Shown in pieces: positions 3,205-44,587 of a DNA stretch of 51,972 bases. The position numbers and the translations under genes are program-made. This DNA is from Candidatus Pacearchaeota archaeon (GTDB lineage: Archaea > Nanobdellota > Nanobdellia > Pacearchaeales > GW2011-AR1), in assembly GCA_023137045.1 (NCBI GenBank), contig JAGLQB010000001.1, forward strand, positions 1 through 51,972, read 5' to 3'. Positions within the stretch are counted from its first letter, which is position 1. Each line of letters opens with the position of its first letter. The notes under the pieces were generated by a model that worked only from the letters and a program-made list of their open reading frames with translations, did no database searches and was not told the origin of the DNA.

Positions 3205-3245
3205 TTTTGGTAAAGATTATAAACTTAATTTTATTTTTATTTAAA

Positions 3246-4112: not shown

Positions 4113-4162
4113 TTGATTTTTTAATTAGATAGCTTTTTATAATTTCTTTTACATCAATTTTA

Positions 4163-5230
4163 ATGATTGAACGAAAAGGTGCAAAAAGTGGTTCTGATAA
4201 GAAAAAGTCTTTTTTTATTCTTAAGTGTTTTTTTATTCTTTTATTTGTTTTTTTAATTGGACTTGTTTGTGTTTTTTTTGTTATGGATATTTTTTCTCAA
4301 AAGAGTTTTATTTGCGGAGATAATACTACTAATGGAAATTGTTCTATAAATAAACCTTATTTTTGTGTAAATGGAACTTTATTGGAAGATGCTTTTGTTT
4401 GTGGTTGTCCAGAGATTCTTAATGAAGAAAAAGGTTTATGTGTTTCAGATTATCATAAGGATCCTAAAAATATTCAATTGAAATATATTTTAAGAGGAGA
4501 AAACAAATCTTTAGATTTTGTTGTTTATGGGGGGATGGTGGAATATTTTTCTACGCTTTCAAAAGTGATTTATTATCAAGAAGGAGAAAGTCCTTCTAGG
4601 AGGGATTTTAAAATTAAAAATATAAACGAAGAGTTACAAAGAGAATTTCTTTTGCCTCTGGTTGTGAAAATACAAAATTTGGCGAAGAATAAAGAAGACC
4701 AAGTAAGGATTGCTGTTAGTTTGGTTCAAAATATTCCTTATGGAAAATCTAATGGTTTTTTTAATTTTGGTTCTAACAAATTGAATTCTTCTAGATACCC
4801 TTATGAAGTTCTTTGGGATTTAAAAGGGGTTTGTGAAGAGAAATCTGAATTAATGGCTTTTTTATTAAAGGAATTTGGGTACGGAGTTGTTTTGTTTTAT
4901 TATCCTGTGGAGAATCATGAGGCAGTTGGAATTAAATGTCCTCTTGAGCATAGTTTAAATGGAACTGGTTATTGTTTTATTGAATCAACAGGACTTTCAA
5001 TTATTTCTGATAATGAAAGACATTATTGGGATTTAGGCAGGCTTTCTCCTGATCCAGAGATGTTTGTAATTTCTGAGGGAGATACTTTGAGTAAGAATAT
5101 GGAAGAGTATGGAGATGCAGATACTTTGACTAAATTTATTAAGATAATCGAAGAGTCTGGAGGACTTAATGTTTTTCAACATGAGAAGTTTGTAGATTTA
5201 AAAGAAAAGTATGGTCTTAAAAATCTTTAA
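4163..5230 (+). CDS. membrane-anchored Cys-rich protein with a transglutaminase-like Cys-His-acid core
   Basis: N-terminal hydrophobic anchor (FFILKCFFILLFVFLIGLVCVFFV) and a Cys-rich module. The core is GVCEEKSELMAFLLKEFGY ... NHEAVGI ... FIESTG. Paralogous in layout to 28766-30043. Confidence 0.6.
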   Translation: MIERKGAKSGSDKKKSFFILKCFFILLFVFLIGLVCVFFVMDIFSQKSFICGDNTTNGNCSINKPYFCVNGTLLEDAFVCGCPEILNEEKGLCVSDYHKDPKNIQLKYILRGENKSLDFVVYGGMVEYFSTLSKVIYYQEGESPSRRDFKIKNINEELQREFLLPLVVKIQNLAKNKEDQVRIAVSLVQNIPYGKSNGFFNFGSNKLNSSRYPYEVLWDLKGVCEEKSELMAFLLKEFGYGVVLFYYPVENHEAVGIKCPLEHSLNGTGYCFIESTGLSIISDNERHYWDLGRLSPDPEMFVISEGDTLSKNMEEYGDADTLTKFIKIIEESGGLNVFQHEKFVDLKEKYGLKNL

Positions 5231-5299
5231 TTATTCTAAAATCGCTTTGATTCTTCTTACTCTAGAACTATTTAAAAAGGTTTAATAAATTATTTTATT

Positions 5300-5884
5300 A
5301 TGGTATTCAAGCATCCACATAGATATGGTTTAATGGCAATGGTTTCAAAAAAAGATTACCTTTTTCTTAAGATGTATGAAGATAAATTAAATCCAAATGT
5401 AAAATTTTATATGAAAGAAGATTTTTTTGAGGATATAGCTCCGCAACATATCTCAGTTTGTTATTTTAGTTATCCAGAAAAATATTCTGAAGAATATGTT
5501 AAGAAATTAGTTCCAAAGATTAACGAAATTATAAAAAAATATTTACCTTTAAAAGTAAAAGTTAAAGGATTGCTTGGAGGTTGGGAAGTAGGAATTGGTG
5601 TTCCCGCAATTTTATGGAACATAATTGAATTTGATGAAATTGAAAAAATGTACAAAGAGATAATGGAAGCATTAAAAGGAGATATTGAACATTTTAATGA
5701 TCCTGAAATGGATTTTACACCCCACATCGGAATTGCATTAGGAAATGATGAAAAAATAGAAGAATTAAAGGAAATTATTGCTAATTCAAAAGATGACCTA
5801 GAATTTGAACTTACACTAGATAAGTTTTATATTTTCTATCCAAATGGACCTAAAAAGATTTTTGATTTAAATTCTTTAGAATAA
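5300..5884 (+). CDS. hypothetical protein, possibly 2H-phosphoesterase (LigT-like) fold
   Basis: Two H-x-[ST/G]-x motifs in the expected order (QHISVCY and TPHIGIAL). The second motif is degenerate, so the function call is weak. Confidence 0.45.
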   Translation: MVFKHPHRYGLMAMVSKKDYLFLKMYEDKLNPNVKFYMKEDFFEDIAPQHISVCYFSYPEKYSEEYVKKLVPKINEIIKKYLPLKVKVKGLLGGWEVGIGVPAILWNIIEFDEIEKMYKEIMEALKGDIEHFNDPEMDFTPHIGIALGNDEKIEELKEIIANSKDDLEFELTLDKFYIFYPNGPKKIFDLNSLE

Positions 5885-5956
5885 AATTAACCCTTTTTTT
5901 CCGGAGATATTATTAGAAATTTCAGAAGATGCTCAATCCAGGCTCGTAGGAGTCCC

Positions 5957-7645
5957 CTATTCTAAAATTGCTTTTATTCTTCTTACTCCTGAACTTGAAG
6001 ATTCTTCTTTTTTTATTTTAAATTTCCCTAATTCGCAAAGATTTTTTATATGAGGTCCAGAGCAAATTTCTTTTGAAAAATTTCCTATTGTATAGACAGA
6101 AACAATTTCTCCGTACTTTTTATCAAATACTCCAATTGCTCCTTGTTTTTTTGCTTTTTCAGGGGACATTTCCTCTCTTTTAACTTCACATGAATTTTGT
6201 ATTTGTGCATTAACTAAATCTTCTATTTTTTTTATTTCTTCTTTAGTTAATTTTCTTGAAAAAGAAAAATCTAATCTTAATCTTTCTGGAGTTATGTTGC
6301 TTCCTTTTTGAATTATGTTTTTATCTTTTAAAACAGTCCTTAGAGCTGCTAAAAGTAAATGTGTTGTTGTGTGGAGTTTTGTTGTTGCTTCTGAATTATC
6401 TGCTAAACCAGATTTGAATTTTCCTGCTGATGCAGTTCTTGAAAGTTTTTGGTGTTTTTCAAATTCTTTTTCAAATTCTTTTTTTGAAAATTTTATTTTA
6501 TTTTTTTTACACTCTTCTTCAATCATTTCAAGGGGAAAACCATAGCTTTGGTAGAGTAAGAAAGAATTTTTGCAATTTAGTTCTTTTTTATCTTTTGTAA
6601 CCTTTTTGAAGGTTTTTAGTCCTTTTTCTAAAGTTTGATTAAATTTTTCTTCTTCTTTTTCTAATTCTGCTAAGATTTTCTTTTTATTTTTCAGGATTTC
6701 ATAATCATTATATGTCTCAAATATAGGTTCTGCAACTTTAGAGGTAAAATTTCTAATTTCCATTTCTCTTCCATATCTTACCGCCCTTCTAATTAATCTT
6801 CTTAAGACATATCCTTGTTCTGTGTTGCTTGGTGTAATCCCATCAGCTATGATAAAAACAGAAGCTTTGATATGGTCTGCAATTATTCTCATCTCTTTTT
6901 CGTTTCCTTTGTATTTTTTCCTAGATAATTTTTCTATTTTTTTTATTATTGGTTGCCAAATTTCTGTTAAATAATTATCCTTAAATTTATTTAGTATTGC
7001 TAAAATTCTTTCTACCCCTCCTCCAAAATCTATATTTTTTTGTTTTGCAAGATTATATTTTCCTTTTTCATCTTTGTTGTATTGCATTAAAACATCATTT
7101 CCTATTTCAATATTATTTACAAACATCTCTGTACTTGGACCGCATGGACCTATTTTTCCTATAGGCCCCCACCAATTATCCCTCCCAAGAAATTTTATTT
7201 TTTGTTTAGGAATTCCTAATGATTCCCAAATTTTCTCAGATTCTGTATCTTTAGGAGCATTTTTATCTCCTTTAAAGCAAGTCACTGATATTTTTTCTTT
7301 GGGTATTTTTAGGGTATTGGTGAGGAATTCTAAAGTCATTTCAATCGCCTCTTGTTTCCAATAATCTCCTAAACTCCAATTTCCCAACATCTCAAGAAAT
7401 GTATGATGGCAATTATCTCCTACTTCTTCAATGTCTATTGTCCTTATGCACTTCTGCACATTAACTAATCTTTTTCCTTGAGGATGTTTTTGCCCAAGAA
7501 GATAGGGAACTAGAGGTTGCATCCCTGCTGAATTAAATAAAGTTGTAGGATCATTTTCAAGAATAAGGGAATCATTTGGAATTACTTTGTGATTTTTTGA
7601 TTTAAAAAATTCTAAATATTTTTTTATTAATTGTTTTCTGTCCAT
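5957..7645 (-). CDS. alaS: alanyl-tRNA synthetase, short bacterial-type form
   Basis: DPTTLFNSAGMQP, HHTFLEMLGNWS and GGGVERILAIL, with editing-site HTTTHLL and CSGPH. At 562 aa it apparently lacks the C-terminal C-Ala domain. Confidence 0.9.
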   Translation of the reverse strand: MDRKQLIKKYLEFFKSKNHKVIPNDSLILENDPTTLFNSAGMQPLVPYLLGQKHPQGKRLVNVQKCIRTIDIEEVGDNCHHTFLEMLGNWSLGDYWKQEAIEMTLEFLTNTLKIPKEKISVTCFKGDKNAPKDTESEKIWESLGIPKQKIKFLGRDNWWGPIGKIGPCGPSTEMFVNNIEIGNDVLMQYNKDEKGKYNLAKQKNIDFGGGVERILAILNKFKDNYLTEIWQPIIKKIEKLSRKKYKGNEKEMRIIADHIKASVFIIADGITPSNTEQGYVLRRLIRRAVRYGREMEIRNFTSKVAEPIFETYNDYEILKNKKKILAELEKEEEKFNQTLEKGLKTFKKVTKDKKELNCKNSFLLYQSYGFPLEMIEEECKKNKIKFSKKEFEKEFEKHQKLSRTASAGKFKSGLADNSEATTKLHTTTHLLLAALRTVLKDKNIIQKGSNITPERLRLDFSFSRKLTKEEIKKIEDLVNAQIQNSCEVKREEMSPEKAKKQGAIGVFDKKYGEIVSVYTIGNFSKEICSGPHIKNLCELGKFKIKKEESSSSGVRRIKAILE

Positions 7646-7686: not shown

Positions 7687-8046
7687 TTATTCTTGCAGGG
7701 AATTAAGTTTTTCTTGGATATCTTTAAGTTGGGATTCAAGGTTTTCGTCATATTCTTCTACTTCTATTTTTGATTTAATTTTTTCAAAGTTTTTTTCATC
7801 TTTTAATATCTCTGGAATTTCTAATTTTGGGAGAGTTATTTGAAGTTTTTTAATTCCCATTAAAAAATCTTTTATCTTTTTTAATAAGCTAATTTTTAAT
7901 TTTAATTCTTCTGATCTTAGAAGTTTATATCTTTTTGTGGATTTGGTAATTCTTAAAAGATTCATTTCTGAAGATAGCACGTTTCTTTTGGATTGAAGTG
8001 CTTCCCCATATTCTAGTTTGACATGGATTAAATTTTCGTTTTTCAT
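7687..8046 (-). CDS. hypothetical coiled-coil protein
   Basis: 119-aa ORF with heptad-like K/E/L-rich sequence. It overlaps the upstream gene by 4 nt (translational coupling). Confidence 0.5.
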   Translation of the reverse strand: MKNENLIHVKLEYGEALQSKRNVLSSEMNLLRITKSTKRYKLLRSEELKLKISLLKKIKDFLMGIKKLQITLPKLEIPEILKDEKNFEKIKSKIEVEEYDENLESQLKDIQEKLNSLQE

Positions 8047-13522: not shown

Positions 13523-14596
13523 ATGCAAGAAATATTGAATGGAATTTCCAAAAAAATTGCAAGTAAGGATAAAGATGATTTTATTAATGTTCTAAAAATG
13601 TTTTCTCCCGGAACTTCTATTCGTTCTGCTCTTGATGATATTTTAAGAGCTAGGATGGGCGCGTTAATTGCAATTGATGCCCCAGAACTTTCTAAAATTC
13701 TTGAAGGAGGTTTTAAAGTTAATTGCAAATTTAGTTCCCAAAAACTTGTAGAACTTGCTAAGATGGATGGTGCGATTATTCTTTCAAAGGACTTAAAAAA
13801 AATTCTATATGCAAATACCCTTCTTTTTCCAAGTATTAGTATATCAACAAAGGAAACAGGGACAAGACATAAAGCGGCAGAAAGAACTGCGAACCAAATA
13901 AAGACGATTGTTATTGCTGTGTCTGAAAGAAAAAATAAAATTACTATTTATTACAAACATGTAAAGTATGAATTAGAAATAAGTTCAGAAGTTTTAAGAA
14001 GGGCTGCGGAAACCTTACAAATTTTAGAAAAGCAAAAGGATATCCTTAACGATATAATGATTAATATTAATATCTTGGAAATAAATAATCTAGTAACAAT
14101 AAGTGATGTTTGCGAAGTTTTACAAAGGATGGAGATGATAAGGAGGATTTCAGATGTGGTTAAAAGATATTTAGTTGAGTTAGGTAAAGAAGGAAATATT
14201 ATGAGTATGAGACTAAAGGAATTGACAAAGAATCTTAATAAAGAAAGACAAATGGTATTAATGGATTATTTTCAATCAAAATATTCCCATCCAGATAATA
14301 TCCTTAAAAATATTGATTTTGATACATTGCTCGAGGTTTCCAATCTTTCAAAAATTCTTTTTGAGGAAGTTCATGATAAATCAATTTTTCCAAGAGGTAT
14401 AAGGATTTTAAGTAAAACAAATCTGTCTAGTAAGGATATTAAATCTTTAATAAACAATTTTAAAGTTTTTAATCAAATTTTTAATGCAGAGGTGGATTCT
14501 TTGATGAATGTCCTTAAAAATAAAGATGTAGTTAATTCCTTGGTTCAAGATTTGGATGTTTTAAAAGAAAAAATTTTGATAGGAAAAAAATTTTGA
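13523..14596 (+). CDS. disA: DisA-type diadenylate cyclase (DAC domain + helical linker + HhH-like C-terminus)
   Basis: FSPGTSIRSALDDILRARMGALIAI, AKMDGAIILSKDLKKILYANTLL, TGTRHKAAERTA and VIAVSERKNKITIYY. The 357-aa length and domain order match bacterial DisA. Confidence 0.85.
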   Translation: MQEILNGISKKIASKDKDDFINVLKMFSPGTSIRSALDDILRARMGALIAIDAPELSKILEGGFKVNCKFSSQKLVELAKMDGAIILSKDLKKILYANTLLFPSISISTKETGTRHKAAERTANQIKTIVIAVSERKNKITIYYKHVKYELEISSEVLRRAAETLQILEKQKDILNDIMININILEINNLVTISDVCEVLQRMEMIRRISDVVKRYLVELGKEGNIMSMRLKELTKNLNKERQMVLMDYFQSKYSHPDNILKNIDFDTLLEVSNLSKILFEEVHDKSIFPRGIRILSKTNLSSKDIKSLINNFKVFNQIFNAEVDSLMNVLKNKDVVNSLVQDLDVLKEKILIGKKF

Positions 14597-14641
14597 TAGA
14601 ATTTGCATAAGACTTATATATTAATAATTTTCACTTTAATC

Positions 14642-15685
14642 ATGTTAACTAAAAAACAAATAGATGAAATTAGGCAGCATCTTGATAAAGCTCAAAATCC
14701 AGTATTCTTTTTTGATAATGATCCTGATGGTCTTTGTTCATTTCTTTTATTACAAAGATACATTGAAAGAGGAAAAGGAGTACCAATTAAATCATTCCCA
14801 GAATTAACAGAAGATTATTTTAGGAAGGTTAATGAATTAAATGCAGACTATATTTTTATTTTAGATAAGCCAGTGGTTTCCCAAGAATTTTTTAAAAGAG
14901 TTGAGGAAATTAATATGCCAATAGTTTGGATAGACCATCACACTATAGACAAAAAACAGATTCCAGATTTTGTGCATTATTATAATCCTTTATTTAACAA
15001 AGACAAACATAATGAACCTGTGACTGTTCTTTGTCAACAGATAAATAATAACAAAAAAGATTTATGGCTCGCAGTAGTTGGAGGTATTTCAGACAAATTT
15101 GTGCCAGATTTTTATTCTGATTTTGAAAAAAGTTATCCTGAATTGTCAATTAAGTCAGAAAGTGCTTTTGAGATTTTTTATAATTCTCAAATTGGAAAGA
15201 TTGTAAAATTATTTAGTTTTGCGTTGAAAGACAAAACAACCAATGTGATAAATATGTTGAAATTTTTAATGAAAGTTAAAACTCCTTACGAAGTTTTGGA
15301 AAAAACCAGCAAGAATTATACAATGCATGAACGATTTGACCAGATTGATAGAAGATACCAGAAATTATTAATTAAAGCAGAAGAAATTTCAGTAGATTCA
15401 GAAAAAGTTTTGTTTTTTCAATATGGAGGTGATATGAGTATAAGCAGTGATTTAGCAAATGAATTGAATTATAGATTTCCAGAGAAAATTATCGTAGTTC
15501 TTTATTTCAAAGGGATAAAAGCAAATATTTCTGTTAGAGGCAAAAAGATAAAAGACAAAATTTTGGAAGCCATTAAAAATTTGGAAGGGGCTACAGGTGG
15601 TGGGCATGAAGATGCAGTTGGAGCACAAATTAATGTAGAAGATATAGAAAAATTCCGAGAGAAGCTTCTTGAGTTGGTGGAATAA
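14642..15685 (+). CDS. DHH/DHHA1-family phosphoesterase
   Basis: FFFDNDPDGLCS (motif I), FILDKP, WIDHHT (DHH) and GGGHEDAVGA (DHHA1). The ATG at 14642 is preferred over the TTG at 14603. Confidence 0.8.
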   Translation: MLTKKQIDEIRQHLDKAQNPVFFFDNDPDGLCSFLLLQRYIERGKGVPIKSFPELTEDYFRKVNELNADYIFILDKPVVSQEFFKRVEEINMPIVWIDHHTIDKKQIPDFVHYYNPLFNKDKHNEPVTVLCQQINNNKKDLWLAVVGGISDKFVPDFYSDFEKSYPELSIKSESAFEIFYNSQIGKIVKLFSFALKDKTTNVINMLKFLMKVKTPYEVLEKTSKNYTMHERFDQIDRRYQKLLIKAEEISVDSEKVLFFQYGGDMSISSDLANELNYRFPEKIIVVLYFKGIKANISVRGKKIKDKILEAIKNLEGATGGGHEDAVGAQINVEDIEKFREKLLELVE

Positions 15686-18059: not shown

Positions 18060-18084
18060 GCTCAGAATAAATTTTTGAGACTTT

Positions 18085-18156
18085 GGGCTTATAGTCTAAT
18101 GGACAGGACGCCCGGCTTCGGACCGAGTAATGGGGGTTCGACTCCCTCTAAGCCCA
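18085..18156 (+). tRNA. tRNA-Arg (anticodon TCG)
   Basis: Hand-folded cloverleaf. The acceptor is GGGCTTA/TAAGCCC, the D stem GTCT/GGAC, the anticodon loop CTTCGGA and the T arm GGGGG-TTCGACT-CCCTC, with discriminator A. No CCA is encoded. Confidence 0.9.
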
Positions 18157-18206
18157 TGATTTTTATATTTGCAAATATTTTTATATCTGTTTCATTTCTT
18201 TTTTTC

Positions 18207-19481
18207 ATGGTAAATAAACCAAGTTTTGGAGATTATGTGGAAGTTCATTTAACAAAGGAAATCTATGAAGGAACGCTTTTACAAAATCCTGAAAAAGGAA
18301 TTATTTTGCTTAAACTTAATTCTGGTTATAATATTGGATTTAAGAAAAAGGACGTATTGGATGTAAAAGTTTTGAAAAAAGCTCTGGCTAAAAAAGAAGA
18401 AATTGAATTAAAAAAAGATTCTAAGAAACCGAGCATAGCAATGATTATTACTGGGGGGACAATTGCTTCTCGTTTGAATCCTAAAACAGGGGGAGTTGAT
18501 CCTTTGGATACACCAGAAAACTTTTTTAAATTTTATCCCAAATTGTTTGAGAAAGTAAATATAATGAAACTTGAAATGCCATTTATGAAAGCTTCTGAAG
18601 ACATGGATTTTAAGGATTGGCAAAAAATTGCGAGAGCTGCGACAAAGCTTTTGAATGATAATAATATTCGTGGACTAATAATAACTCATGGAACTGATTT
18701 TTTACATTATACCTCTGCTGCTTTGAGTTTTTTTCTGAAAGATTTGAATAAGCCAGTTGTTTTAACTTATAGCCAGAGAAGTATTGACAGAGCAAGTAGT
18801 GACGCCAATTTAAATTTACAATGCTCTGCTTTAGCAGCAATTTCAGATATGGCAGAAGTTATGATTGTTGGGCATGCTTCTTCTAATGATGATTATTGTT
18901 ATGCAATGCCTGGAACCAAAGTTAGAAAAATGCACGCTTCAAAAAGAGACGCATTTAAAGTTATTAATGATAAACCTTTTGCGAAAATTTTTCCAAACCA
19001 AATTGAAAAAATTTCAAGTTATAAAATTAGAAATAAAAATAAAGTTAAATTAGATTTAAAGTTTGAAGAGAAGGTAGCTTTGGTAAAAATTTATCCTGGA
19101 CAAGACCCTTCTATTTTGGATTATTATTTGAAACAAAAGTATAAAGGAATTGTGTTGGAAATGTCTGGATTAGGACATGTCCCGACGAAAAAAGCAAGAA
19201 AGAATTGGATACAAAAACTCAAAGATGTGCAGGCGAAGGGTTTGATTGTATGTGCTACTGCTCAAACAATTTACGGAAGACTTAATCCTTGGGTTTATTC
19301 TAGTGGAAGAGGAATAGTGAAAATTGGGGTTATTTATTTAGAAGATATGCTTTCAGAAACTGCTTTTGTTAAACTTGGTTGGGTTTTGGGACATAAGCAA
19401 TGGGCAAAAGATAAAGAGATGGTAAAGAAAAAAATGTTAGAAAATTTTAGCCACGAGTTGAATGACAAGTTAGAGGCATAA
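18207..19481 (+). CDS. gatD: Glu-tRNA(Gln) amidotransferase subunit D
   Basis: Asparaginase-like motifs ITGGTIASR and ITHGTDFL. The start is moved to MVNKP (ATG 18207) because the track ORF N-terminus overlaps tRNA-Arg. Confidence 0.9.
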   Translation: MVNKPSFGDYVEVHLTKEIYEGTLLQNPEKGIILLKLNSGYNIGFKKKDVLDVKVLKKALAKKEEIELKKDSKKPSIAMIITGGTIASRLNPKTGGVDPLDTPENFFKFYPKLFEKVNIMKLEMPFMKASEDMDFKDWQKIARAATKLLNDNNIRGLIITHGTDFLHYTSAALSFFLKDLNKPVVLTYSQRSIDRASSDANLNLQCSALAAISDMAEVMIVGHASSNDDYCYAMPGTKVRKMHASKRDAFKVINDKPFAKIFPNQIEKISSYKIRNKNKVKLDLKFEEKVALVKIYPGQDPSILDYYLKQKYKGIVLEMSGLGHVPTKKARKNWIQKLKDVQAKGLIVCATAQTIYGRLNPWVYSSGRGIVKIGVIYLEDMLSETAFVKLGWVLGHKQWAKDKEMVKKKMLENFSHELNDKLEA

Positions 19482-22784: not shown

Positions 22785-24056
22785 ATGGAAAGAAAATATA
22801 TCAGAGAAGTAAAAGCAGGAGAATCTGTTTTTTTGCAGGGCTGGATTTATGAATTGAGGATTCTTTCTAAAATGGCTTTTATTTTGTTAAGGGATTCTTC
22901 TGGAATGATTCAATGTATTATTAAAGATAAGGAACTCATGAAAAAAATTTCTGAATTAACATTGGAATCAGTAGTTGAAATTTATGGGAAAGTTAAAAAA
23001 GCAAATGTGAAAGCAGAATTTGCTAGAGATGATTTGGAGATAGAAGTAACTGACTGGACTTTGATAAGTAAGGCAGATAAACTTCCTATCCACTTGAATG
23101 AAAAAACAACCACAACTTCATTTTCTAAAAGATTAGATTATAGATTTTTGGATGTAAGAAAACCAAAAGTTTATGCTATTTTCAAAATTGAGTCAACAAT
23201 AATGCAGGCATATCGGGAGTTCATGATAAATGAAGGTGCTATGGAAGCAGTTTTCCCTTCGATAATTAGTGCAAGTTCTGAGGGAGGCACAGAATTATAC
23301 GCATTGAAATATTTTGAAAAAAAGGCATTTTTGAGTCAAAGTTGTCAGTTATATAAACAAATGCTTGTTTGTTCGGCTGAAAAAGTTTTTACAATTTTTA
23401 CTGTTTGGAGAGCTGAGAAACATAATACATCTCGGCATTTAAATGAGGCAAGACAATTAGATTTTGAAATGGCTTTTGCCGACGAATTTACAGTGATGGA
23501 TATAATGGCAAAGGCAGTGCAATACATAATCAAAAAAGTTATGGAAAAAAATAAAGAAGAGTTAGAATTATTGGGTGTAAAATTAAAAGTTCCCAAAGTG
23601 AAATATTTAACTTTTGAAGAAGCTAATAAGATTTTAAAAAAGAATAACATTAAAACAGAAACTAAAGATATAACTTTGGAGGGTGAAAAAAAGTTTGGAG
23701 AACTTTTTTTGGATACAATTGTTTTTGTCCATGACTGGCCGATAAAGGGAAAGCCATTTTATATTATGCCAAAAGGAGATGGGTTATCGCATGGGTTTGA
23801 TGCAATTTACAAAGGAATGGAAATAACTTCTGGCGGTCAAAGAGTTCATATTCCAGAAATTTTAGAAAAACAATTAAGAGAAAGAGACCTTGACCCTAAA
23901 AATTTTAAATCATATATTGACAGTTTTAGATTTGGTGCACCTCCTCATGCAGGTTGGGGACTTGGTCTTGAAAGGCTGACTATGTTAATTCTTGGAATCT
24001 CAAATATTCGTGAGGTTACATTGTTTCCAAGAGATAGGGAGAGATTAACCCCATGA
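22785..24056 (+). CDS. aspS: aspartyl-tRNA synthetase, archaeal type
   Basis: N-terminal OB domain and class IIb motifs, with GAPPHAGWGLGLERL and the C-terminal FPRDRERLTP. Confidence 0.9.
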   Translation: MERKYIREVKAGESVFLQGWIYELRILSKMAFILLRDSSGMIQCIIKDKELMKKISELTLESVVEIYGKVKKANVKAEFARDDLEIEVTDWTLISKADKLPIHLNEKTTTTSFSKRLDYRFLDVRKPKVYAIFKIESTIMQAYREFMINEGAMEAVFPSIISASSEGGTELYALKYFEKKAFLSQSCQLYKQMLVCSAEKVFTIFTVWRAEKHNTSRHLNEARQLDFEMAFADEFTVMDIMAKAVQYIIKKVMEKNKEELELLGVKLKVPKVKYLTFEEANKILKKNNIKTETKDITLEGEKKFGELFLDTIVFVHDWPIKGKPFYIMPKGDGLSHGFDAIYKGMEITSGGQRVHIPEILEKQLRERDLDPKNFKSYIDSFRFGAPPHAGWGLGLERLTMLILGISNIREVTLFPRDRERLTP

Positions 24057-25345
24057 AATTTATATCAATCAATGAAGCTATGAAAAAAGGAAGAGGCCAA
24101 GTGGCTGTGCGTGGTTGGGTGTTTAGAGAAAGAGGTTCAAATAAATTTAAGTTTCTTATTTTAAGAGATGTTACAAACACGATTCAATGTATTTTGCCCC
24201 ATGAGAAGTTTGAAAAACAATGGGGAGAGATTGATAAAATTCAAGTGGAAACTTCTGTAGAAATTTTTGGGACAATAAAAAAAGATAGTCGTGCTCCTAC
24301 AGGTTATGAAATTCAAGTTAGTAAAATAAATATAATTGGTCTTTCTGATAAGTTTCCCATTAATAAAAGTTTAAATGAAGAATTGCTTGGAGATAGAAGA
24401 CATCTTTGGTTAAGGAGTCGGAAGATGATTTCAATTATGAAAATTAGGAGCACTGTTACAGGTGCTTTACATGAGTATTTTAGGAGCAAGGGATTTTATG
24501 AATTTCAAAGTCCAGTTATTATTCCCGGTGGTGCTGAAGAAGGACCAACTATGTTTGAAATTAATTATTTTAAGAAAAAAATGTATCTGGCACAGACATG
24601 GCAACTTTATGCAGAATCTGCGATTTATTCTTTAGAAAAAATTTATTGTATTGCACCAAGTTTTAGGGCGGAAAAATCAAAAACTTCTCGTCATTTGACT
24701 GAGTATTGGCATACAGAAATGGAGATTGCGTGGGCTAATTTGGATGAGATTATGGATTATGCAGAGGAAATGACTAAGTATGTTTTAAAAAAAGTTTTAG
24801 AGAAAAATAAAGAAGAATTAGAATTTTTGGGAAGAGATATTAAAAAGTTGGGACCGGCATTGAAAAAGAAATTCCCCCGTGTTACATATGATGAAGTGTT
24901 GAAAATTTTAAAGGATAAGAAAAAGATGAAGGTTTCTTGGGGGAAGGATTTAAGGACAATTGAAGAAGAGAAGTTTATGGAATTGTATGACACGCCTGTA
25001 TTTGTAACTAATTATCCAAAAGAGGTAATGGCTTTTTACAAACCAAGAGACCCTAAAAATCCTAAAACTGCAAGATGTTTTGATATGTTGGGACCTGAAG
25101 CAAATGGAGAATTAATTGGTGGAAGTGAAAGAGATATTAATATAGAAGAACTAAAAAAATCTTTGAAATCTAAAGGAGAAAAATTAGAAGATTATTCGCA
25201 TTATTTTGATATTCATTCATACGGAGCTGTGCCTCATGGTGGCTATGGCTTAGGAACAGAAAGATTGATAAAATGGATTTGTGGATTAGATACTATTAAG
25301 GACGCAATTGCATTCCCAAGAACAATGACGAGAACAAGTCCTTAA
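24053..25345 (+). CDS. asnS: asparaginyl-tRNA synthetase
   Basis: SFRAEKSKTSRHLTEYWH, GGSERD, GAVPHGGYGLGTERL and FPRTMTRTSP. It overlaps aspS by 4 nt (ATGA). Confidence 0.9.
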   Translation: MKFISINEAMKKGRGQVAVRGWVFRERGSNKFKFLILRDVTNTIQCILPHEKFEKQWGEIDKIQVETSVEIFGTIKKDSRAPTGYEIQVSKINIIGLSDKFPINKSLNEELLGDRRHLWLRSRKMISIMKIRSTVTGALHEYFRSKGFYEFQSPVIIPGGAEEGPTMFEINYFKKKMYLAQTWQLYAESAIYSLEKIYCIAPSFRAEKSKTSRHLTEYWHTEMEIAWANLDEIMDYAEEMTKYVLKKVLEKNKEELEFLGRDIKKLGPALKKKFPRVTYDEVLKILKDKKKMKVSWGKDLRTIEEEKFMELYDTPVFVTNYPKEVMAFYKPRDPKNPKTARCFDMLGPEANGELIGGSERDINIEELKKSLKSKGEKLEDYSHYFDIHSYGAVPHGGYGLGTERLIKWICGLDTIKDAIAFPRTMTRTSP

Positions 25346-32710: not shown

Positions 32711-32828
32711 CGTCCCCGGGAGGACTCGAACCTCCGACCTATCGGTTTCTGTGATTTCAAGATATAGGATGAGTAAATCTTGATTTACACTTAACAGCCG
32801 ATCGCTCTACCAACTGAGCCACAGGGAC
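32711..32828 (-). tRNA. tRNA-Asn (anticodon GTT) with a 45-nt intron at the canonical 37/38 position
   Basis: The minus strand reads GTCCCTG TG GCTC AGTTGGTA GAGC G ATCGG CTGTTA[45-nt intron]A CCGAT AGGTC GGAGG TTCGAGT CCTCC CGGGGAC G. The intron contains a TCAAGAT/ATCTTGA hairpin and an ACAG that can pair with the CTGT of the anticodon loop. Confidence 0.9.
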
Positions 32829-37674: not shown

Positions 37675-39693
37675 TTACATCCTTCCAACATAACCTCTTC
37701 TTGGTTTAAAAATCTCACCATGTGAATTTAATTTGTTTATTGCTTCATCAATTTCATCTTTAGTCAATTTTCCCTCAAGTTCTTTTTCAATTTCTTCAAT
37801 AGGAATCATTTTACCTAAACTACTTTCCAATTTGATAATTGTATCTCTAACTGCAAATATTTTATTTCTTTGTGATGTCATCATTCCAGTTGTGGCTTTG
37901 TCGATGTCAAATGTTTTTGATTCATAATCATAACCTACTTGCATTAAATAATATTTCATTAATTCTATTGAGATTTTCGCATCCTCTACTGTGACTTCGT
38001 TACTGAGTCTTAATTTTGCTGAAGCTTCAGACATTCTGATAAGGGCTTGCAATTGCCTTGCAGAAATTGGAATTGGTCTTAATGCACTTTCAGATGATAC
38101 TGGTTTGTTTCTCAAATTTACATAAAAATCTTTTATTTCTGTTACTGCTCCTTGGCTTAATGTTGGTTTGATTCTTTGTTTTGCATAGGCAACATATTTC
38201 CTAAAAATTTCTCTTGGGATTAGCATTGTTTCTCCTTTTTTTATGTGTTCATGAAGGACATGCATGGCAATTTTTTCATCTTTCTCTTTATCTGGAATAT
38301 CTCTTAATGTAAATATAACATCAAATCTGTTGATAAGTGTCGGTGGAAGGTCGATTTGTTGTGCTATTGATTGATAGGGGTCAAATCTCCCGAATTTAGG
38401 ATTGGCTGCTGCCAGAACAGAAGTTTCGGCTCTTAGTGTGGCTTGAACATTTGCTTTGCTTATGGTTATTGTTTGTTGCTCCATTGCTTCATGCATGGCA
38501 CTTCTGTCGCTGGAGTCCATTTTTTCTAATTCATCTATACAAACAAGTCCTTTGTTTGCCAGAACCATTGCTCCTGCTTCTAAGCTCCAACCTCTTAGAT
38601 ATTCATCCCTTACAACAGTTGCAGTTAATCCTGCCCCTGATGCAGATTTTCCCACCACATATCTTCCCTTAGGAGAAATTTCTGCCATAAAACCTAAGGT
38701 AACACTTTTAGCAACTCCTGGATCTCCCATCAATAAAATATGAATGTCCCCCCTACTTTTTTGACCATCTGCGTGAACTTTTTGCACACCTCCGAACAAT
38801 TGTAAAACAAGGGATTTTTTTATTTCCTCATAACCCCAGATACTGGGAGTAATGCTTCTTGCTAAATTATTGAATATGTTTGGGTCTTGTGAAAGTTCAA
38901 GAATTTGTTTTTCATCTTCTTCGCTTATGTCTAATTCTTCAAAGGTTTCTTCCATGGGAATCACATTATTGGCCTCAATTGCTAACTCAAACCTTGTTGA
39001 AAGCCCCCCTGAATGCAATGGTACTGGAACTTCTTTTAATATGCCTATTATTTTTATCCTGCTTCCGGGAGTTGTTTTCTCTTCCATTTTTGGTTCAACT
39101 AAATCTTCTTTCACAAATACATTAATCCTTTTTGGTTGTTCTCCTCCAGATAATGATTCTGGTGATTCTTCTACAACAAGTCTTTGGGTGTCAACCATCT
39201 CTTTGCTTATTAATTTAAATCCCCCCCTCCTACCACAAGAACATCTTGAAGGTTCTCTAAACTTTTTCTCTATTTGCAACACTGCAATAATTGTACCACA
39301 ACTTGGGCATTCAAATTTTGCATTTACCACCTGTGGTCTTACATCTGATGCCTGTCTTATAATTCCTTCAATGACAATCATTTCATCTAAATGTTTTGAA
39401 CGAATATTCCTAACTTTGATTTCTTGGCTTTTTGAAAGATTCTGAAGTCTTATTCTCGCATTATTTATTAATCCAGATTCTTCAACTGCTAATTCCATAA
39501 GTCTTAATGTATCTTCTGGATGTGAAAGTATTTCTTCAGCAAGTATATGAGAAAATTCTGTCAATTGCATGAAATCAATGTAAATTACATTTGTTCCCTT
39601 TCTAATTGCTTCTCCTATCTGTTTTTTGTTGAAGTCAAAGAAATTTTTTGCTTCATTTACCAGGTCCTCGTTTTTTGGTTTCCCCTCTGTCAT
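37675..39693 (-). CDS. mcm: MCM replicative helicase
   Basis: Zinc motif CPSCG...CSCG, Walker A LLMGDPGVAKS, Walker B CIDELEKM, arginine finger NRFDVIF and a C-terminal WH domain. Confidence 0.95.
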   Translation of the reverse strand: MTEGKPKNEDLVNEAKNFFDFNKKQIGEAIRKGTNVIYIDFMQLTEFSHILAEEILSHPEDTLRLMELAVEESGLINNARIRLQNLSKSQEIKVRNIRSKHLDEMIVIEGIIRQASDVRPQVVNAKFECPSCGTIIAVLQIEKKFREPSRCSCGRRGGFKLISKEMVDTQRLVVEESPESLSGGEQPKRINVFVKEDLVEPKMEEKTTPGSRIKIIGILKEVPVPLHSGGLSTRFELAIEANNVIPMEETFEELDISEEDEKQILELSQDPNIFNNLARSITPSIWGYEEIKKSLVLQLFGGVQKVHADGQKSRGDIHILLMGDPGVAKSVTLGFMAEISPKGRYVVGKSASGAGLTATVVRDEYLRGWSLEAGAMVLANKGLVCIDELEKMDSSDRSAMHEAMEQQTITISKANVQATLRAETSVLAAANPKFGRFDPYQSIAQQIDLPPTLINRFDVIFTLRDIPDKEKDEKIAMHVLHEHIKKGETMLIPREIFRKYVAYAKQRIKPTLSQGAVTEIKDFYVNLRNKPVSSESALRPIPISARQLQALIRMSEASAKLRLSNEVTVEDAKISIELMKYYLMQVGYDYESKTFDIDKATTGMMTSQRNKIFAVRDTIIKLESSLGKMIPIEEIEKELEGKLTKDEIDEAINKLNSHGEIFKPRRGYVGRM

Positions 39694-39781
39694 GGTAGAA
39701 AATAGTGGACTTTACTTTTATACTTTTATATAAAAGAATATGGTTTTTGAGAAAAAAGGATTATTGTCTAGGAGTAAATTT

Positions 39782-39811
39782 TTATTTCTTGTAGTCATTC
39801 AAAGCAACTTT
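39782..39811 (-). repeat. copy A of the TBP gene 3' end (30 nt)
   Basis: ttatttcttgtagtcattcaaagcaacttt matches 40721-40750 at 26 of 30 positions (hand count). The minus strand reads KVALNDYKK-stop, against KVALKNYKK-stop in TBP. It overlaps the stop codon of the 39810-40631 gene. Confidence 0.6.
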
Positions 39812-40631
39812 AATTTTCTAAAACTTTAATTTTTTCTTTAAGCTCTTCTATTTGTTTTTGTTGTTCTTTTATTGCTTCAACTAACAAAGGAGTTAATGCT
39901 CCATAATCAATACTACTTGCAAATATGCCATCTGGTTCATAAACAACTATCTCAGGAACTATTTTGCCAACTTCTTCGGCAATCATTCCCATATCATATT
40001 TACCACCGTGTTCTTCATCCCAATTAAAATATACACCTTCTAGAGAAAGAATTTTGTCTAGTGCTCCATCAATTTGCATTATATTTTTTTTCCATCTTAT
40101 TGATGAACTCGCACAATAATTTGTTCCCGGACCAACTGCATCAAAATCACAACTTTCAGAACCACCATAACCTTTAACTCCTATGTTTTTAGTAGAATGA
40201 CCATAAACACCTACGGCATATCCAGAACTACCTCGAATCCCTCCAAAACTACTATAACCGTAAATTGCATAAGTAGAATCCCCAACATTACCAACACTTA
40301 ATTTTGATTCTGGACTATCTGTCCCAATTCCTATCTTTCCATCATTATAATAAATATCTGAACCACTTTGAGTCCATAAACCTGAACCTCCGCCAAAATC
40401 TCCCCCATCTATAGCTTCTTGTAATGTTTTTTCAGTACCTCCAACATTAACACTCACTTGGGTTGATTCATGATACCCTTTGCTTGTATCAATTCCTCCA
40501 GCCAAAGCATAAACTCCAACACTAATTATCATTAAAATCCCTATTGTTATAAAAGTGTAAAGCCACCTATTAGAAAAATTAATTTGAACTAGACCTACTT
40601 TAATGCCTCTTTTACATCTCTCTCTCTTCAT
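39810..40631 (-). CDS. membrane-anchored tail-fibre-like protein with a C-terminal intramolecular chaperone (peptidase S74-like) domain
   Basis: N-terminal TM helix and LWTQSGSDIYYNDGKIGIGTDSPESKLSV (a tail-fibre-like motif). Gly/Tyr/Ser-rich repeats follow. The C-terminus is SSSIRWKKNI...LSLEGVYFNW...MGMIAEEVGKIVPEIV...IDYGALTPLLVEAIKEQQKQIEELKEKI. Confidence 0.7.
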   Translation of the reverse strand: MKRERCKRGIKVGLVQINFSNRWLYTFITIGILMIISVGVYALAGGIDTSKGYHESTQVSVNVGGTEKTLQEAIDGGDFGGGSGLWTQSGSDIYYNDGKIGIGTDSPESKLSVGNVGDSTYAIYGYSSFGGIRGSSGYAVGVYGHSTKNIGVKGYGGSESCDFDAVGPGTNYCASSSIRWKKNIMQIDGALDKILSLEGVYFNWDEEHGGKYDMGMIAEEVGKIVPEIVVYEPDGIFASSIDYGALTPLLVEAIKEQQKQIEELKEKIKVLEN

Positions 40632-40670
40632 TTTATTTTAAAGAAAAAGGGGTTTTTAAATTTCACTAAA

Positions 40671-40700
40671 TTATTTCTTGTAATTCTTCAAAGTAAAATC
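40671..40700 (-). repeat. copy B of the TBP gene 3' end (30 nt)
   Basis: ttatttcttgtaattcttcaaagtaaaatc matches copy A and the true TBP end at 23 of 30 positions each. The minus strand reads DFTLKNYKK-stop. It lies 20 nt downstream of the real TBP stop. Confidence 0.55.
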
Positions 40701-40720
40701 AGAGATTTTTTATTAAACAA

Positions 40721-41287
<567 letters not shown>

Positions 41288-41359
41288 GTTTATTTAAAAA
41301 TAAATAAAAATTCATTTATAAAGGCTTCGACGATGTTCTAAAACCCTAAAATTTTTATT

Positions 41360-43069
41360 TTAACCATATCTATAATTTCTTTTTTGTTTTATGAAATCTT
41401 TTTCTATTTCTTTGAGGGTTGTTATTTCTGAAAGAGGTTTATCTGGTCTTAATGCAGTAAATCTCGGAAATCTTAATGCCCACCCAGAATTATAATTGGG
41501 AGATTTTTGAATTTCTTGATAAGTTACTGAAACTACAATCTTTGGTTTTATCTTTACTTTTTTTCCGTGCTCTTCTGTAATCAATGGTTTTATCTGTTCT
41601 GTTAATTCTCCAAAAGACATACCTTGTTCTTTTTTTTCTTTTATGCCTGTGCCAACTTTTCCAATTTCTAAAAACTTTTTTGATTTTTCATCTTTGCATG
41701 AAAGAATAAAACTAGAAAGCCATCCAGATCTTTTGCCTTTTCCGTATTCTGCTCCAGTGATTACCAAATCTAAATCTCTTTCTTCTGGTTTTATTTTTAA
41801 CATATGTCCAACTCTTCTTCCAGGTTGATAAGTGGCTTTTAGATTTTTCATCATAACGCCTTCTTGATTATCTCTAAGTGCTTTTTTGTAGAATTCTTTT
41901 GCTCTTTTTTCGTTACTTGTTATTATCTGCTTTGCATGGATTATTTTGTAAGGATGATTTTTAATAATGCTTTTTATTATTGCTGTTCTTTTTTCAAAAG
42001 TTTCATCTACTAAAGATTTTCCATCATGATAGAGAATGTCAAAAATATTTATCTCAACTGGAAGTTCTTTTTGTAGTTTGTCAATATGATATTTTCTTCT
42101 AATTCTTTGGCTTATACTTTGGAATGGTTTATACTCTTTTGTTTTTTTATCAAAGCCAACTGCTTCTGAATCAAGAATAACTGACTTTGCATTTACATAT
42201 TTATTTATGTAATCAATAACTTCTGGAAATTGTTTTGTAACATTTTCTAAGCTTCGAGTGAAAAGTGAGATATCTTCCCCATTTTTGTGAATCAATAATC
42301 TGAAGCCGTCATATTTGTATTCTATTGCACAAGGTTGTCCGAGTGCTTTGAAACCATCTTTGATTGTTGTTACTTTTTGTGCAAGCATGGCTTTTATTGG
42401 TTTTCCGATTTGCAGAGATATTTTTTCTAAATCTTTTAGCTTTCCTTTTTTTGCAACATCAAAAACTACTGCAATGTCATTTGATTTGTCAATTGCGTTC
42501 TGAATTTTTGCTGATTCTTTTTTGCCTCCTTTAAAGAACGCTTTTGTTAATGCTTCTCTTATTGTGCTTTCTTGTACCCCAATCCTCAAATCTCCAATAA
42601 TGGTTCTTACCAAATACAAAGCTTCTAATGGTGACGCAGAAGTTAGGAGTTCGGTTATTAATAATATTTTTTTGTTTACTGTTCCTTTGCCTTCAAGTTC
42701 TGGAAGTTTTCTTAAATTTTCTAAAATTTTTTCTGTAGTTAAGATATGACTATGCAATGTTGATTGTTTTTTGTGCAGTATAACTTTTTCTGCAACTTTG
42801 CCTAAATCTCCAATAACTTTCCATTCGTGCACTATTTTTTTTATGTCTATTCCAGTCGCTTTTGAAATGGATTTTATTGCCAATTGATCACTTATCCCAA
42901 TTCTTCTTTCATCATATTCTGGATAAATATCTCCTAAAAGTAAATACATTATTTCTCTGTCTGATGATCCTAAATTTCTCAAAAATTTAGAAGTAATTTC
43001 TATTTTTTCCAGACGTTTTGGGGTCGCAGAAAGTTCTTTATATAGTTCAGCAAGTTTTAGATAGCGCAT
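41360..43069 (-). CDS. lig: ATP-dependent DNA ligase
   Basis: Adenylation motif EYKYDGFR, plus LDSEAV, MMKNL and LKIKPE, with a C-terminal OB domain. Confidence 0.95.
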   Translation of the reverse strand: MRYLKLAELYKELSATPKRLEKIEITSKFLRNLGSSDREIMYLLLGDIYPEYDERRIGISDQLAIKSISKATGIDIKKIVHEWKVIGDLGKVAEKVILHKKQSTLHSHILTTEKILENLRKLPELEGKGTVNKKILLITELLTSASPLEALYLVRTIIGDLRIGVQESTIREALTKAFFKGGKKESAKIQNAIDKSNDIAVVFDVAKKGKLKDLEKISLQIGKPIKAMLAQKVTTIKDGFKALGQPCAIEYKYDGFRLLIHKNGEDISLFTRSLENVTKQFPEVIDYINKYVNAKSVILDSEAVGFDKKTKEYKPFQSISQRIRRKYHIDKLQKELPVEINIFDILYHDGKSLVDETFEKRTAIIKSIIKNHPYKIIHAKQIITSNEKRAKEFYKKALRDNQEGVMMKNLKATYQPGRRVGHMLKIKPEERDLDLVITGAEYGKGKRSGWLSSFILSCKDEKSKKFLEIGKVGTGIKEKKEQGMSFGELTEQIKPLITEEHGKKVKIKPKIVVSVTYQEIQKSPNYNSGWALRFPRFTALRPDKPLSEITTLKEIEKDFIKQKRNYRYG

Positions 43070-44462: not shown

Positions 44463-44587
44463 GCCCCTGTAGTCTAGAGGCCAAGGATACAGCCCTTTCA
44501 AAGTAAAGTGCTTGCACTTTTCATTACTCCAGTTTCTTTGGAGATTGAAGTAAGGCTGTGACCCGAGTTCGAATCTCGGCGGGGGCG
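44463..44587 (+). tRNA. tRNA-Glu (anticodon TTC) with an intron of about 52 nt at position 37/38
   Basis: GCCCCTG TA GTCT AGAGGCCAA GGAT A CAGCC CTTTCA[intron]A GGCTG TGAC CCGAG TTCGAAT CTCGG CGGGGGC G. The intron contains AAGTG-CTTG-CACTT and CTCCA-GTTTCTT-TGGAG hairpins. Confidence 0.9.

Follow-up and report, generated by a model that had tools for sequence, protein, structure and literature searches.

The locus between tbp, the gene of the TATA-box-binding protein (TBP), and mcm, the gene of the replicative helicase, in a Pacearchaeota/Nanoarchaeota (DPANN) archaeon raises the question of how a single gene came to lie between two displaced copies of the end of tbp, and which process leaves such copies behind. 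The window, that is, the whole stretch of DNA analysed, is a 52-kb contig (51,972 nucleotides, nt), a metagenome scaffold with a GC content of about 30%. On its minus strand the gene of the ATP-dependent DNA ligase (41360-43069) is followed by tbp (40721-41287), an open reading frame (ORF) of 273 amino acids (aa; 39810-40631), below called the cassette gene, and mcm (37675-39693). A sequence-only reading of the window had described three copies of the tbp end, the two additional ones matching the functional end at 23 and 26 of 30 positions by hand count, and had explained them by site-specific insertion into the end of tbp with duplication of the target. The coordinates and counts were recomputed and are all correct; the explanation is modified here. 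Comparison with a sister genome places the limits of the gene exactly at the two displaced copies, and we lean towards conservative recombination between short copies of gene ends as the process behind them.

Below, L-numbers (L084, L090, etc.) denote loci of related metagenome genomes, L090 being the sister genome and R the single displaced copy that it carries. The features of the locus are as follows.

40721 to 41287, minus strand: tbp, TATA-box-binding protein, 188 aa, intact, ending in KVALKNYKK-stop (Pfam PF00352, E 1e-57, two repeats).
40721 to 40750, minus strand: copy C, the functional end of tbp, its last 30 nt with the TAG stop codon (plus-strand letters CTACTTCTTGTAGTTCTTCAAAGCAACTTT); in L090 the orthologous end is followed by the same 20-nt spacer.
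40701 to 40720, minus strand: spacer TTGTTTAATAAAAAATCTCT between C and B, 20 nt, part of an older scar, 19/20 identical in L090 after the tbp stop codon.
40671 to 40700, minus strand: copy B, the left recombination site (plus-strand letters TTATTTCTTGTAATTCTTCAAAGTAAAATC), 23/30 identical to C and 25/30 to R of L090.
40632 to 40670, minus strand: 5' region of the cassette, 39 nt, with a TATA-like element TTTAAAAA at 40653-40660, 21-28 nt upstream of the ATG.
39810 to 40631, minus strand: cassette gene, 273 aa, with a membrane anchor, a tail-fibre-like middle part and a C-terminal Peptidase_S74 domain.
39782 to 39818, minus strand: copy A, the right recombination site, AAAGTTGCTTTGAATGACTACAAGAAATAA (KVALNDYKK-stop); its part 39782-39811 (plus-strand letters TTATTTCTTGTAGTCATTCAAAGCAACTTT) is 26/30 identical to C.
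39694 to 39781, minus strand: ancestral tbp-mcm intergenic region, 88 nt, colinear with the interval from the tbp stop to the mcm ATG in empty sites and in L090.
37675 to 39693, minus strand: mcm, replicative helicase, 672 aa (Pfam MCM, MCM_OB and MCM_lid), the conserved right-hand neighbour.

Copies of the tbp end

Copy B is composed of GATTTTAC and a 22-nt core of the tbp tail, TTTGAAGAATTACAAGAAATAA, and its left flank is common to B and R. The match between A and C extends to 37 nt at 84% identity in a repeat search, TTATTTCTTGTA is common to A and B, and the first bases of A overlap the stop codon of the cassette gene. B and A bracket 859 bp (39812-40670) with one ORF only and no Ns in the region; the variant shared by A and B, the extent of this segment and its single gene with a TATA-like element had all been reported in the sequence-only reading and are confirmed. 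The direct repeats on both sides of the 859 bp include the 3' end of the target gene, and the cassette gene together with its own tail copy forms a unit of 889 bp: the 39-nt promoter region, the ORF and about 30 nt of the tbp end. The 88 nt between A and mcm hold a conserved TTACTCCT motif (39770-39777), a T-run (39752-39757) and the TATA-like box of mcm (approximately 39715-39722).

The simplest alternative is that the copies are chance similarities in an AT-rich, lysine-codon-rich sequence, or an assembly artefact in which strain variants were concatenated. The GC content of about 30% speaks for caution here, and so does the resemblance of the tbp tail to A/T-rich promoter sequence: with a position-specific scoring matrix (PSSM) of the tbp tail, a hit in the tbp-mcm gap of L051 proved to be a false positive, namely the mcm TATA box, and another one, in L074, overlaps the start of mcm. 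For comparison, 80 loci were fetched with MCM as the query, and in 62 of them tbp directly precedes mcm on the same strand; most Pacearchaeota TBPs are 87-94% identical to that of the window in amino acids, with a few more distant loci at 76-84%.

The chance-match test, which had been named beforehand as capable of overturning the claim, places the repeats far beyond chance at the empirical nulls. A 23-nt degenerate consensus has exactly three sites (A, B and C) in the 52 kb against 0.03 expected in shuffles, although this test is partly circular because the consensus was built from the copies themselves. In the 62 related genomes the best match of the genome's own tbp 30-mer inside its own tbp-mcm gap never exceeded 20/30. 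When 796 ORF ends were compared with the 1500 nt downstream of them (approximately 1 Mb of related DNA), the mode was 17-18/30, and only four, tbp included, reached at least 25. A scan of 1.58 Mb for downstream same-strand copies of ORF ends (at least 24/30) yielded ten ORFs, eight of which are genuine, the false ones being a spurious antisense ORF within a tandem repeat (L116) and a run of low-complexity Lys/Glu codons (L165); the controls gave no copies upstream, and one and none on the opposite strand, with approximately 6 million positions tested per class. With the PSSM, made from 66 tbp tails, copies B and A score 23.4 and 22.6, the 99.99th percentile being 12.4. An apparent homology of the cassette 3' end to tbp that runs past about 37 nt was discounted as K/E-codon low complexity, because the coiled-coil end is native to S74 proteins.

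Chance would also not produce the colinearity of the flanks with empty sites that is described below. The homologous scar, in which C and the spacer are followed by a further tail copy, occurs in two independent assemblies differing by about 10%, which excludes an assembly artefact; there are also no Ns in the region. The tbp-end repeats are real and far beyond chance, and we consider this alternative as a whole to be most improbable.

A recombined empty site in the sister genome

An MCM protein search yielded the closest relative at hand, L090, whose source is a sister sample in the same study. The two samples are BioSamples SAMN18200496 and SAMN18200502, with the assemblies ERZ23498471 and ERZ23499054. 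The MCM proteins of L090 and the window are 94% identical in amino acids outside the intein, and the tbp, ligase and mcm genes 91, 88 and 89%, respectively, in nucleotides; the identity of tbp per 60-nt window varies between 81 and 98% without a clear break. L090 does not have the cassette. Its tbp stop codon is followed by TTGTTTAATGAAAAATCTCT (the spacer, 19/20), GATTTTGATTTGAAAAATTATAAGAAGTAA (R), AAAGATTTACTCCT and, further on, the mcm ATG; immediately after R stands AAAGATTTACTCCTGCATAATAATCC, which in the window comes after copy A. The empty junction thus has the form spacer, GATTTT, core, AAATTTACTCCT.

R is a single hybrid copy of the tbp tail that has the left flank and the left part (GATTTT) of B and the right flank of A, so that the empty site of a related genome contains one recombined copy. 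As R joins the left flank of B to the right flank of A, the cores of B and A are the exact limits of the segment that one genome has and the other lacks. This relation, B x A = R, reads as the mark left when two short direct repeats undergo conservative exchange.

The left part of A (AAAGTTGC; AAAGTTGCTTTGAA) is tbp-like, abuts the stop codon of the cassette gene and is not present in R; hence the 889-bp unit carries or abuts a tbp-tail copy of its own. The left attachment site (attL) corresponds to the left part of R joined to the right part of the unit, and the right one (attR) to the left part of the unit joined to the right part of R. Such a topology would be expected if a circle made up of the tail copy, the 39-nt promoter region and the ORF had integrated into R, and it would be equally consistent with the loss of the unit from L090 by recombination between B and A. 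The target duplication proposed in the sequence-only reading does not survive this comparison: B has the chromosomal left flank and the tbp-like left part of A is missing from R, which is not a simple duplication.

The order C-spacer-R is common to the window and L090, and the recombination site is accordingly an older pseudo-end 20 nt downstream of the tbp stop codon, not the functional end of tbp. The earlier placement of the insertion at the 3' end of tbp therefore holds in part: a discrete unit is indeed bounded by tbp-end copies, but its site is the pseudo-end and not the functional end. The C-spacer-R scar is either older than the cassette or was left by cassette loss. It would be compatible with end replacement; the B/A site itself lies 20 nt past the tbp stop codon. 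That C-spacer-B arose by tandem duplication of a 50-nt unit was rejected, the sequence after C being unrelated to that after B or R.

The mcm genes of the two genomes also differ. That of L090 (3681-7061, 1126 aa) carries an intein with a LAGLIDADG endonuclease, and that of the window (672 aa) has no intein. Other Pacearchaeota MCMs of about 1015-1140 aa are found among the homologues, those of about 1126-1141 aa carrying the same intein domains. The mcm intein is a presence/absence polymorphism.

The tbp-mcm gap in related genomes

Empty sites, for which the sequence-only reading had suggested a search in related genomes, are common. In 38 of the 62 relatives the tbp-mcm gap is only 31-205 nt long (79 nt in L091), and to these short gaps L090 adds the exactly recombined site; the 20-nt C-B spacer is not present in the 38 simple empty sites. 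The other 24 relatives have a gap of 273-3281 nt with unrelated small genes in either orientation, among them toxin-antitoxin pairs and genes of membrane-anchored surface proteins whose N-terminal parts are related to that of the cassette protein.

Copy A, its 88-nt right flank and the start of mcm are colinear with the tbp end, the intergenic region and the mcm start of the empty sites, and the alignment includes the TYACTCCT motif just 3' of the tbp stop codon and the mcm TATA box. Thus, copy A occupies the usual place of a tbp end. The spacing of the promoter region (tbp stop codon, 36-39 nt, then the ATG of a surface-protein gene) is the same in L084 and L004. The tbp-mcm gap is a variable slot between conserved genes, and the 273-aa gene is accessory in it.

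The spacer between ligase and tbp is another variable slot, seen in many of the loci of relatives. In L090 a patatin-family gene (2063-2908) that overlaps the ligase stop codon lies there; in the window this spacer has only 72 nt (41288-41359).

Displaced ends of other genes

The window contains one more scar of this kind.

5231 to 5995, minus strand: second scar, at alaS; gene end at 5957-5995, displaced copy at 5231-5269, 27/30 identical, about 39 nt of homology.

The last 39 nt or so of alaS recur 726 nt downstream, and all three differences over the 30 nt compared are synonymous. Between the two copies lies one gene in reverse orientation (5300-5884, plus strand, 194 aa) of the 2'-5' RNA ligase superfamily. 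Among 80 metagenome alaS loci, 40 carry a convergent gene directly next after alaS, usually 10-30 nt from the stop codon, and none of the 80 carries an inserted gene of the 2'-5' RNA ligase type. The 72-nt segment immediately after alaS (5885-5956) is homologous to a spacer element in L144 (5780-5870) and L157 (2561-2650), with an exact 16-mer at the same offset and approximately 80% identity over about 45 nt. This element is non-coding (it contains CTGGA(G)TTGAG and, further on, CTGAAATTTCTAATAA) and is each time accompanied by a remnant of the alaS tail; it has no Rfam match (the window copy was searched) and no match in viral contigs. The alanyl-tRNA synthetase (AlaRS) of the window is only 61-62% identical to those of L144 and L157, and closer relatives do not have the element. 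Being common to distant lineages and missing in closer ones, it points to horizontal movement to the same gene end; the element itself is either mobile or functional.

Equivalent scars were observed at other genes and in other genomes. In L026 (8348-9483) the end of an OB-fold/RPA-like gene is duplicated around a DUF4258-like and DUF2283-like pair, and in L055 (reverse complement, 2667-4165) the end of a membrane-protein gene is duplicated around a HEPN-MNT pair. The ends of the aIF2-beta gene are duplicated around spacers of 22-110 nt in L074, L039 and L015, L074 (9847-10312) having an exact 34-nt duplicate of the end 22 nt downstream of the gene, and those of alaS around spacers of 56-91 nt in L144, L157 and L112. 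Beyond the eight genuine scars of the scan, three alaS or aIF2-beta tail remnants, in L112, L137 and L015, are below its threshold. The homology of every scar ends with the stop codon, over copies of 22-45 nt, and the native downstream flank stays with the displaced copy in the cases that allow a judgement. The remnant in L015 encodes KHSVRSKI with the codons TCT/CGT/TCT where the functional end has AGT/AGA/AGT; as these belong to other Ser and Arg codon families, the remnant derives from the functional gene of another lineage and not from duplication in place. Duplication of a target site by a staggered cut was rejected as a general model because of the stop-codon boundary, common to all repeats, together with these different codon families. 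The view of TBP as a special target must also be given up, since alaS, aIF2-beta, the OB-fold gene and the membrane-protein gene show the same footprint.

These scars bear on a second alternative, homology-facilitated illegitimate recombination (HFIR). Linear related DNA anchored on tbp would enter, the donor gene end and its cargo would be joined by microhomology tens of nucleotides upstream of the recipient stop codon, the native end would be displaced downstream, and L090 would later have lost the cassette by slippage or recombination between B and A. In every judgeable case the functional end and the cargo are indeed upstream and the displaced copy keeps its native flank. The differences between copies are often synonymous only, as between functional alleles (3/3 in alaS, 3/3 in L026, and 3/3 between B and C over 21 nt), the cargo may be as short as 20 nt or as long as 0.9 kb and bears no relation to the target; no recombinase was found nearby, and there is a microhomology of 2-3 nt (AA/A) at the junction of the cassette stop codon and A. 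This model accounts less well for the tbp locus itself, where the chromosomal left flank of B and the tbp-like left part of A give the topology of a circle entering R, or else an extra deletion in L090 is needed. Moreover, the alaS spacer is common to lineages whose AlaRS are too divergent for a long homology anchor, and the remnants are all at most 45 nt long, unlike random illegitimate joints unless longer repeats are quickly lost. We see illegitimate import as the main alternative and as possible, with something like one chance in its favour to several against.

A family of GC-rich elements of 60-110 nt was seen in the AT-rich Pacearchaeota genomes, with termini of approximately GAGCGACTTCGTGG and CCGTGCGAGGTCGGGAG that form imperfect inverted repeats (L015, about 7830-7935; L039, 6528-6600; L071, 12564-12681; L069, about 2820-2875, 3863-3929 and 4783-4846; L011, about 459 and about 11719). 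In L015 and L039 such an element lies between the aIF2-beta end and its displaced copy, and L071 has two identical tandem copies. The elements of L015, L039, L071 and L069 have no Rfam match; the search of the window and five spacer-element loci at the Rfam gathering threshold returned tRNAs only. Viral matches of a GC-rich 17-mer from the aIF2-beta spacer element were found only in GC-rich contigs and were dismissed as chance.

The cassette gene and its product

The 273-aa protein has a basic N-terminus, one hydrophobic anchor (residues 23-45 approximately), a tail-fibre-like middle part and a C-terminal Peptidase_S74 domain (Pfam PF13884; residues 176-229 of 273, E 7e-13, 49 bits against a gathering cut-off of 22). 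Tail-fibre families of PHROG match it with E-values down to 2e-28 and reach its last residues. In an alignment of sequence alone with PDB entry 6F45, VSSDRRIKKDI is paired with ASSSIRWKKNI (SSDRRIKK with SSSIRWKK), and the catalytic pattern S-x-x-R-x-K at the start of the domain would, going by the primary structure, put Ser176 and Lys181 at the autoproteolysis motif. The profile searches thus bear out the earlier description of a membrane-anchored, tail-fibre-like S74 protein. It is most likely a membrane-anchored trimeric fibre with an S74 domain that is auto-cleaved after folding, and from its domain content it plausibly serves attachment to the host cell.

Full-length homologues with 41-58% identity are lone chromosomal Pacearchaeota genes that lie among housekeeping genes at various loci. 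One of them (44%) likewise lies between tbp and mcm, in L084, at 36 nt from the tbp stop codon and with no tail scars. The N-terminal anchor is shared with surface proteins that have no S74 domain. Exact-sequence look-ups of the window TBP and of the cassette protein returned the same contig only. Matches in viral contigs of IMG/VR are confined to the C-terminal S74 part (35-53% identity) and do not include the N-terminal anchor in any case, and a recent viral origin of the protein is ruled out by this restriction to the S74 domain. The protein appears to be a member of a cellular, variable family of surface fibres that uses an intramolecular chaperone of the phage type.

The promoter and anchor region (INFSNRWLYTF; window 40407-40631) belongs to a multigene surface-protein family. 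The 5' ends of paralogues are 87% identical in nucleotides over 117-132 nt (L032, 389-505 and 5445-5561; L086, 3362-3492 and 4252-4383), and their C-terminal domains differ. Such identity of the anchor region suggests recombination or gene conversion among the family members.

A phage-type domain in the cargo brings in a third alternative, which goes back to the sequence-only reading, a classical integrase-mediated element: a virus or plasmid with an attachment site (attP) matching the tbp end would have integrated, possibly repeatedly, and decayed to one cargo gene and the att copies. The precise relation B x A = R agrees with this, elements recur at the same gene end in distant lineages, and three tandem att-like copies are what one sees when successive integrations push older ones outward, as with the tycheposons of Prochlorococcus, which have stacked partial target copies, degenerate elements and scattered partial tRNAs (bioRxiv 10.1101/2020.12.28.424599). 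Against it, no integrase, even a fragmentary one, was found among the window ORFs of at least 120 aa or in the scar intervals examined; the unit consists of a promoter and one complete ORF and nothing else; its anchor and promoter come from a cellular multigene family, the viral contigs matching only the S74 part at no more than 53%; and the ends of no fewer than five different genes serve as sites, so that an integrase of separate specificity would be required for each. We regard a decayed integrase element as unlikely.

Proposed recombination between gene-tail copies

The reading that we prefer, with slightly more confidence than doubt, is conservative recombination between short gene-tail copies, in which small units have a tail copy as a portable attachment site. 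Now or in the past, the unit would travel as a small circle or fragment with a tbp-tail copy of its own and would integrate into a chromosomal tail copy in the manner of Campbell, and the reverse reaction would delete the unit and leave one copy. Either the recombination or repair machinery of the host, working on 12-40 nt of near-identity, or a recombinase whose gene lies elsewhere could be responsible. The ends of alaS, the aIF2-beta gene and the OB-fold gene would be displaced in the same way, with varied or almost no cargo, and displaced gene ends would then represent a general mode of gene flux in these genomes rather than a system specific to TBP. The junction of the excised circle (attP) is predicted to read GAAAATTAAAGTTGCTTTGAATGACTACAAGAAATAATTTAGTGAAATTT.

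The unit is compact, with a promoter spacing equal to that of the tbp-adjacent surface-protein genes in L084 and L004 and with an ORF whose stop codon overlaps A. Searches of the unit, of the 6 kb to either side of it and of all window ORFs of at least 120 aa turned up no integrase, transposase or other mobility gene, which agrees with the earlier statement that no integrase is left; the remaining gene content of the window is housekeeping.

Two kinds of elements were rejected. A transposon or insertion sequence does not fit, with no transposase, repeats of 22-37 nt that are diverged and bounded by the stop codon, and the other codon families of the L015 remnant; the longest inverted repeat near the unit ends is 17 nt at 82% complementarity, no stronger than many others in the 2.5-kb region. 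An integron cassette does not fit either, as no intI or attI was found in the window and the regions of A and B fold no better than shuffles (no attC-like folding on either strand, z from +0.2 to +1.2).

Several observations weigh against recombination between tail copies as the explanation. Repeats of this kind are missing from most relatives that have genes in the tbp-mcm gap, a tbp-end copy being undetectable in the gap of all 62 by a best-match scan and the PSSM. No tail scars accompany the L084 homologue or any of the 24 other occupied gaps, which means that most turnover of cargo at this slot occurs without this footprint. The closest homologue of the cassette protein (58%) is at a different locus and has no tbp tails. 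Neither a recombinase nor a second copy of the cassette with its tail was found. The perfect identity between A and B extends over only 12 nt, which is short for homologous recombination of the RadA type, and spacers of only 20-90 nt are too small for circles, so that some scars need another route. Finally, the difference between the window and L090 is equally consistent with integration in the lineage of the window and with excision in the sister lineage.

A stronger version of the same reading may be put forward tentatively, and we ourselves doubt it more than we believe it by a wide measure. Accessory genes would be traded in tail cassettes, minimal units without an integrase that hold a promoter, one or two ORFs and a 22-40-nt copy of the coding end of an essential and highly conserved gene. 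This copy would be a portable attachment site and would let the cassette enter any genome that has the same gene end, and stacks of pseudo-ends would reflect repeated cycles. They would form a system analogous to integrons that uses housekeeping gene ends and host or trans-acting recombination, in Pacearchaeota and perhaps in DPANN generally.

DPANN archaea depend on hosts and have very small genomes. Little is understood of how they acquire and lose surface proteins and defence or addiction modules, which shape the interaction with the host, and few recognisable mobile elements occur in them. Essential genes whose ends have been displaced around a cargo of one or two genes give a sequence-level footprint of gene flux, which recurs at several genes and is available here with a matched pair of an occupied and an empty sister site. 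A dedicated or semi-dedicated cassette mechanism, if it exists, would explain hypervariable slots between core genes, and pseudo-ends of core genes would then be a simple marker of recently moved genes in metagenome-assembled genomes. If the scars are only a by-product of illegitimate recombination, they still document this mechanism in archaea and mark the tbp-mcm spacer as a hot spot.

Other features of the window

Two tRNA matches, 32711-32828 (minus strand, 118 nt) and 44463-44587 (plus strand, 125 nt), were obtained with Rfam and not with ARAGORN; these tRNAs probably contain introns. The GatD-like ORF 18075-19481 overlaps a tRNA-Arg (18084-18157), and its true start is therefore further downstream. 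At 13523-15685 a diadenylate cyclase of the DisA type (DAC and DisA-linker domains) adjoins a DHH/DHHA1 phosphoesterase, which looks like a pair for synthesis and degradation of c-di-AMP in a reduced DPANN genome. Two adjacent paralogous genes of class II aminoacyl-tRNA synthetases (22785-25345; 423 and 430 aa, overlapping by 4 nt; tRNA-synt_2 and OB anticodon-binding domains) presumably encode AspRS and a synthetase of the AsnRS/LysRS type.

Comparison with known systems

A description of a displaced-gene-end footprint in DPANN was not found in the literature, a result of incomplete coverage and weak as evidence. The cassette protein itself resembles phage tail-fibre and endosialidase proteins (PF13884; PDB 6F45) in its C-terminal S74 domain with the Ser...Lys motif, the short coiled coil that follows it and the Gly-rich fibre-like repeats upstream. 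Unlike these, it is short (273 aa) and has the N-terminal anchor of a cellular Pacearchaeota family, and its gene is a lone chromosomal one, with no other virion genes nearby.

HFIR has been described for naturally transformable bacteria; to our knowledge, it is not known in archaea, and displaced gene ends as a systematic class are not among its known products. The scars are similar to it in the foreign DNA beside a conserved anchor gene, the microhomology joint, the lack of dedicated mobility genes and the variable size of the insert, whereas the topology of B, A and R is better fitted by conservative exchange.

Integrons have been reported in Archaea. Like their cassettes, the unit would combine one ORF with a short recombination site, pass through a circular intermediate and integrate beside earlier sites, and cargo of the toxin-antitoxin kind is found among the equivalent scars in relatives. 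The differences are that intI and attI were not found in the window, that the flanking sites are copies of host gene ends and not attC, with no hairpin potential beyond that of shuffles, and that the cassette has its own promoter.

Integrative elements that target 3' ends are represented by the tRNA-targeting elements of archaea, for which 'gene capture' has been described, by the tycheposons of Prochlorococcus and by e14 and phage 21 at icd of E. coli. The unit in the window differs from them in being a single gene of 0.89 kb in which no mobility gene was found. Further differences are that the ends of several housekeeping protein genes are used, with a repeat that always stops at the stop codon, that the site in the window is a pseudo-end 20 nt beyond the gene, and that some scars enclose only 20-90 nt. 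The likeness is nevertheless considerable: in both cases the cargo is flanked by copies of the target 3' end and the gene is kept intact by a replacement end, a reused site stacks partial copies, integrase-less remnants occur, and the empty sites of relatives have one copy.

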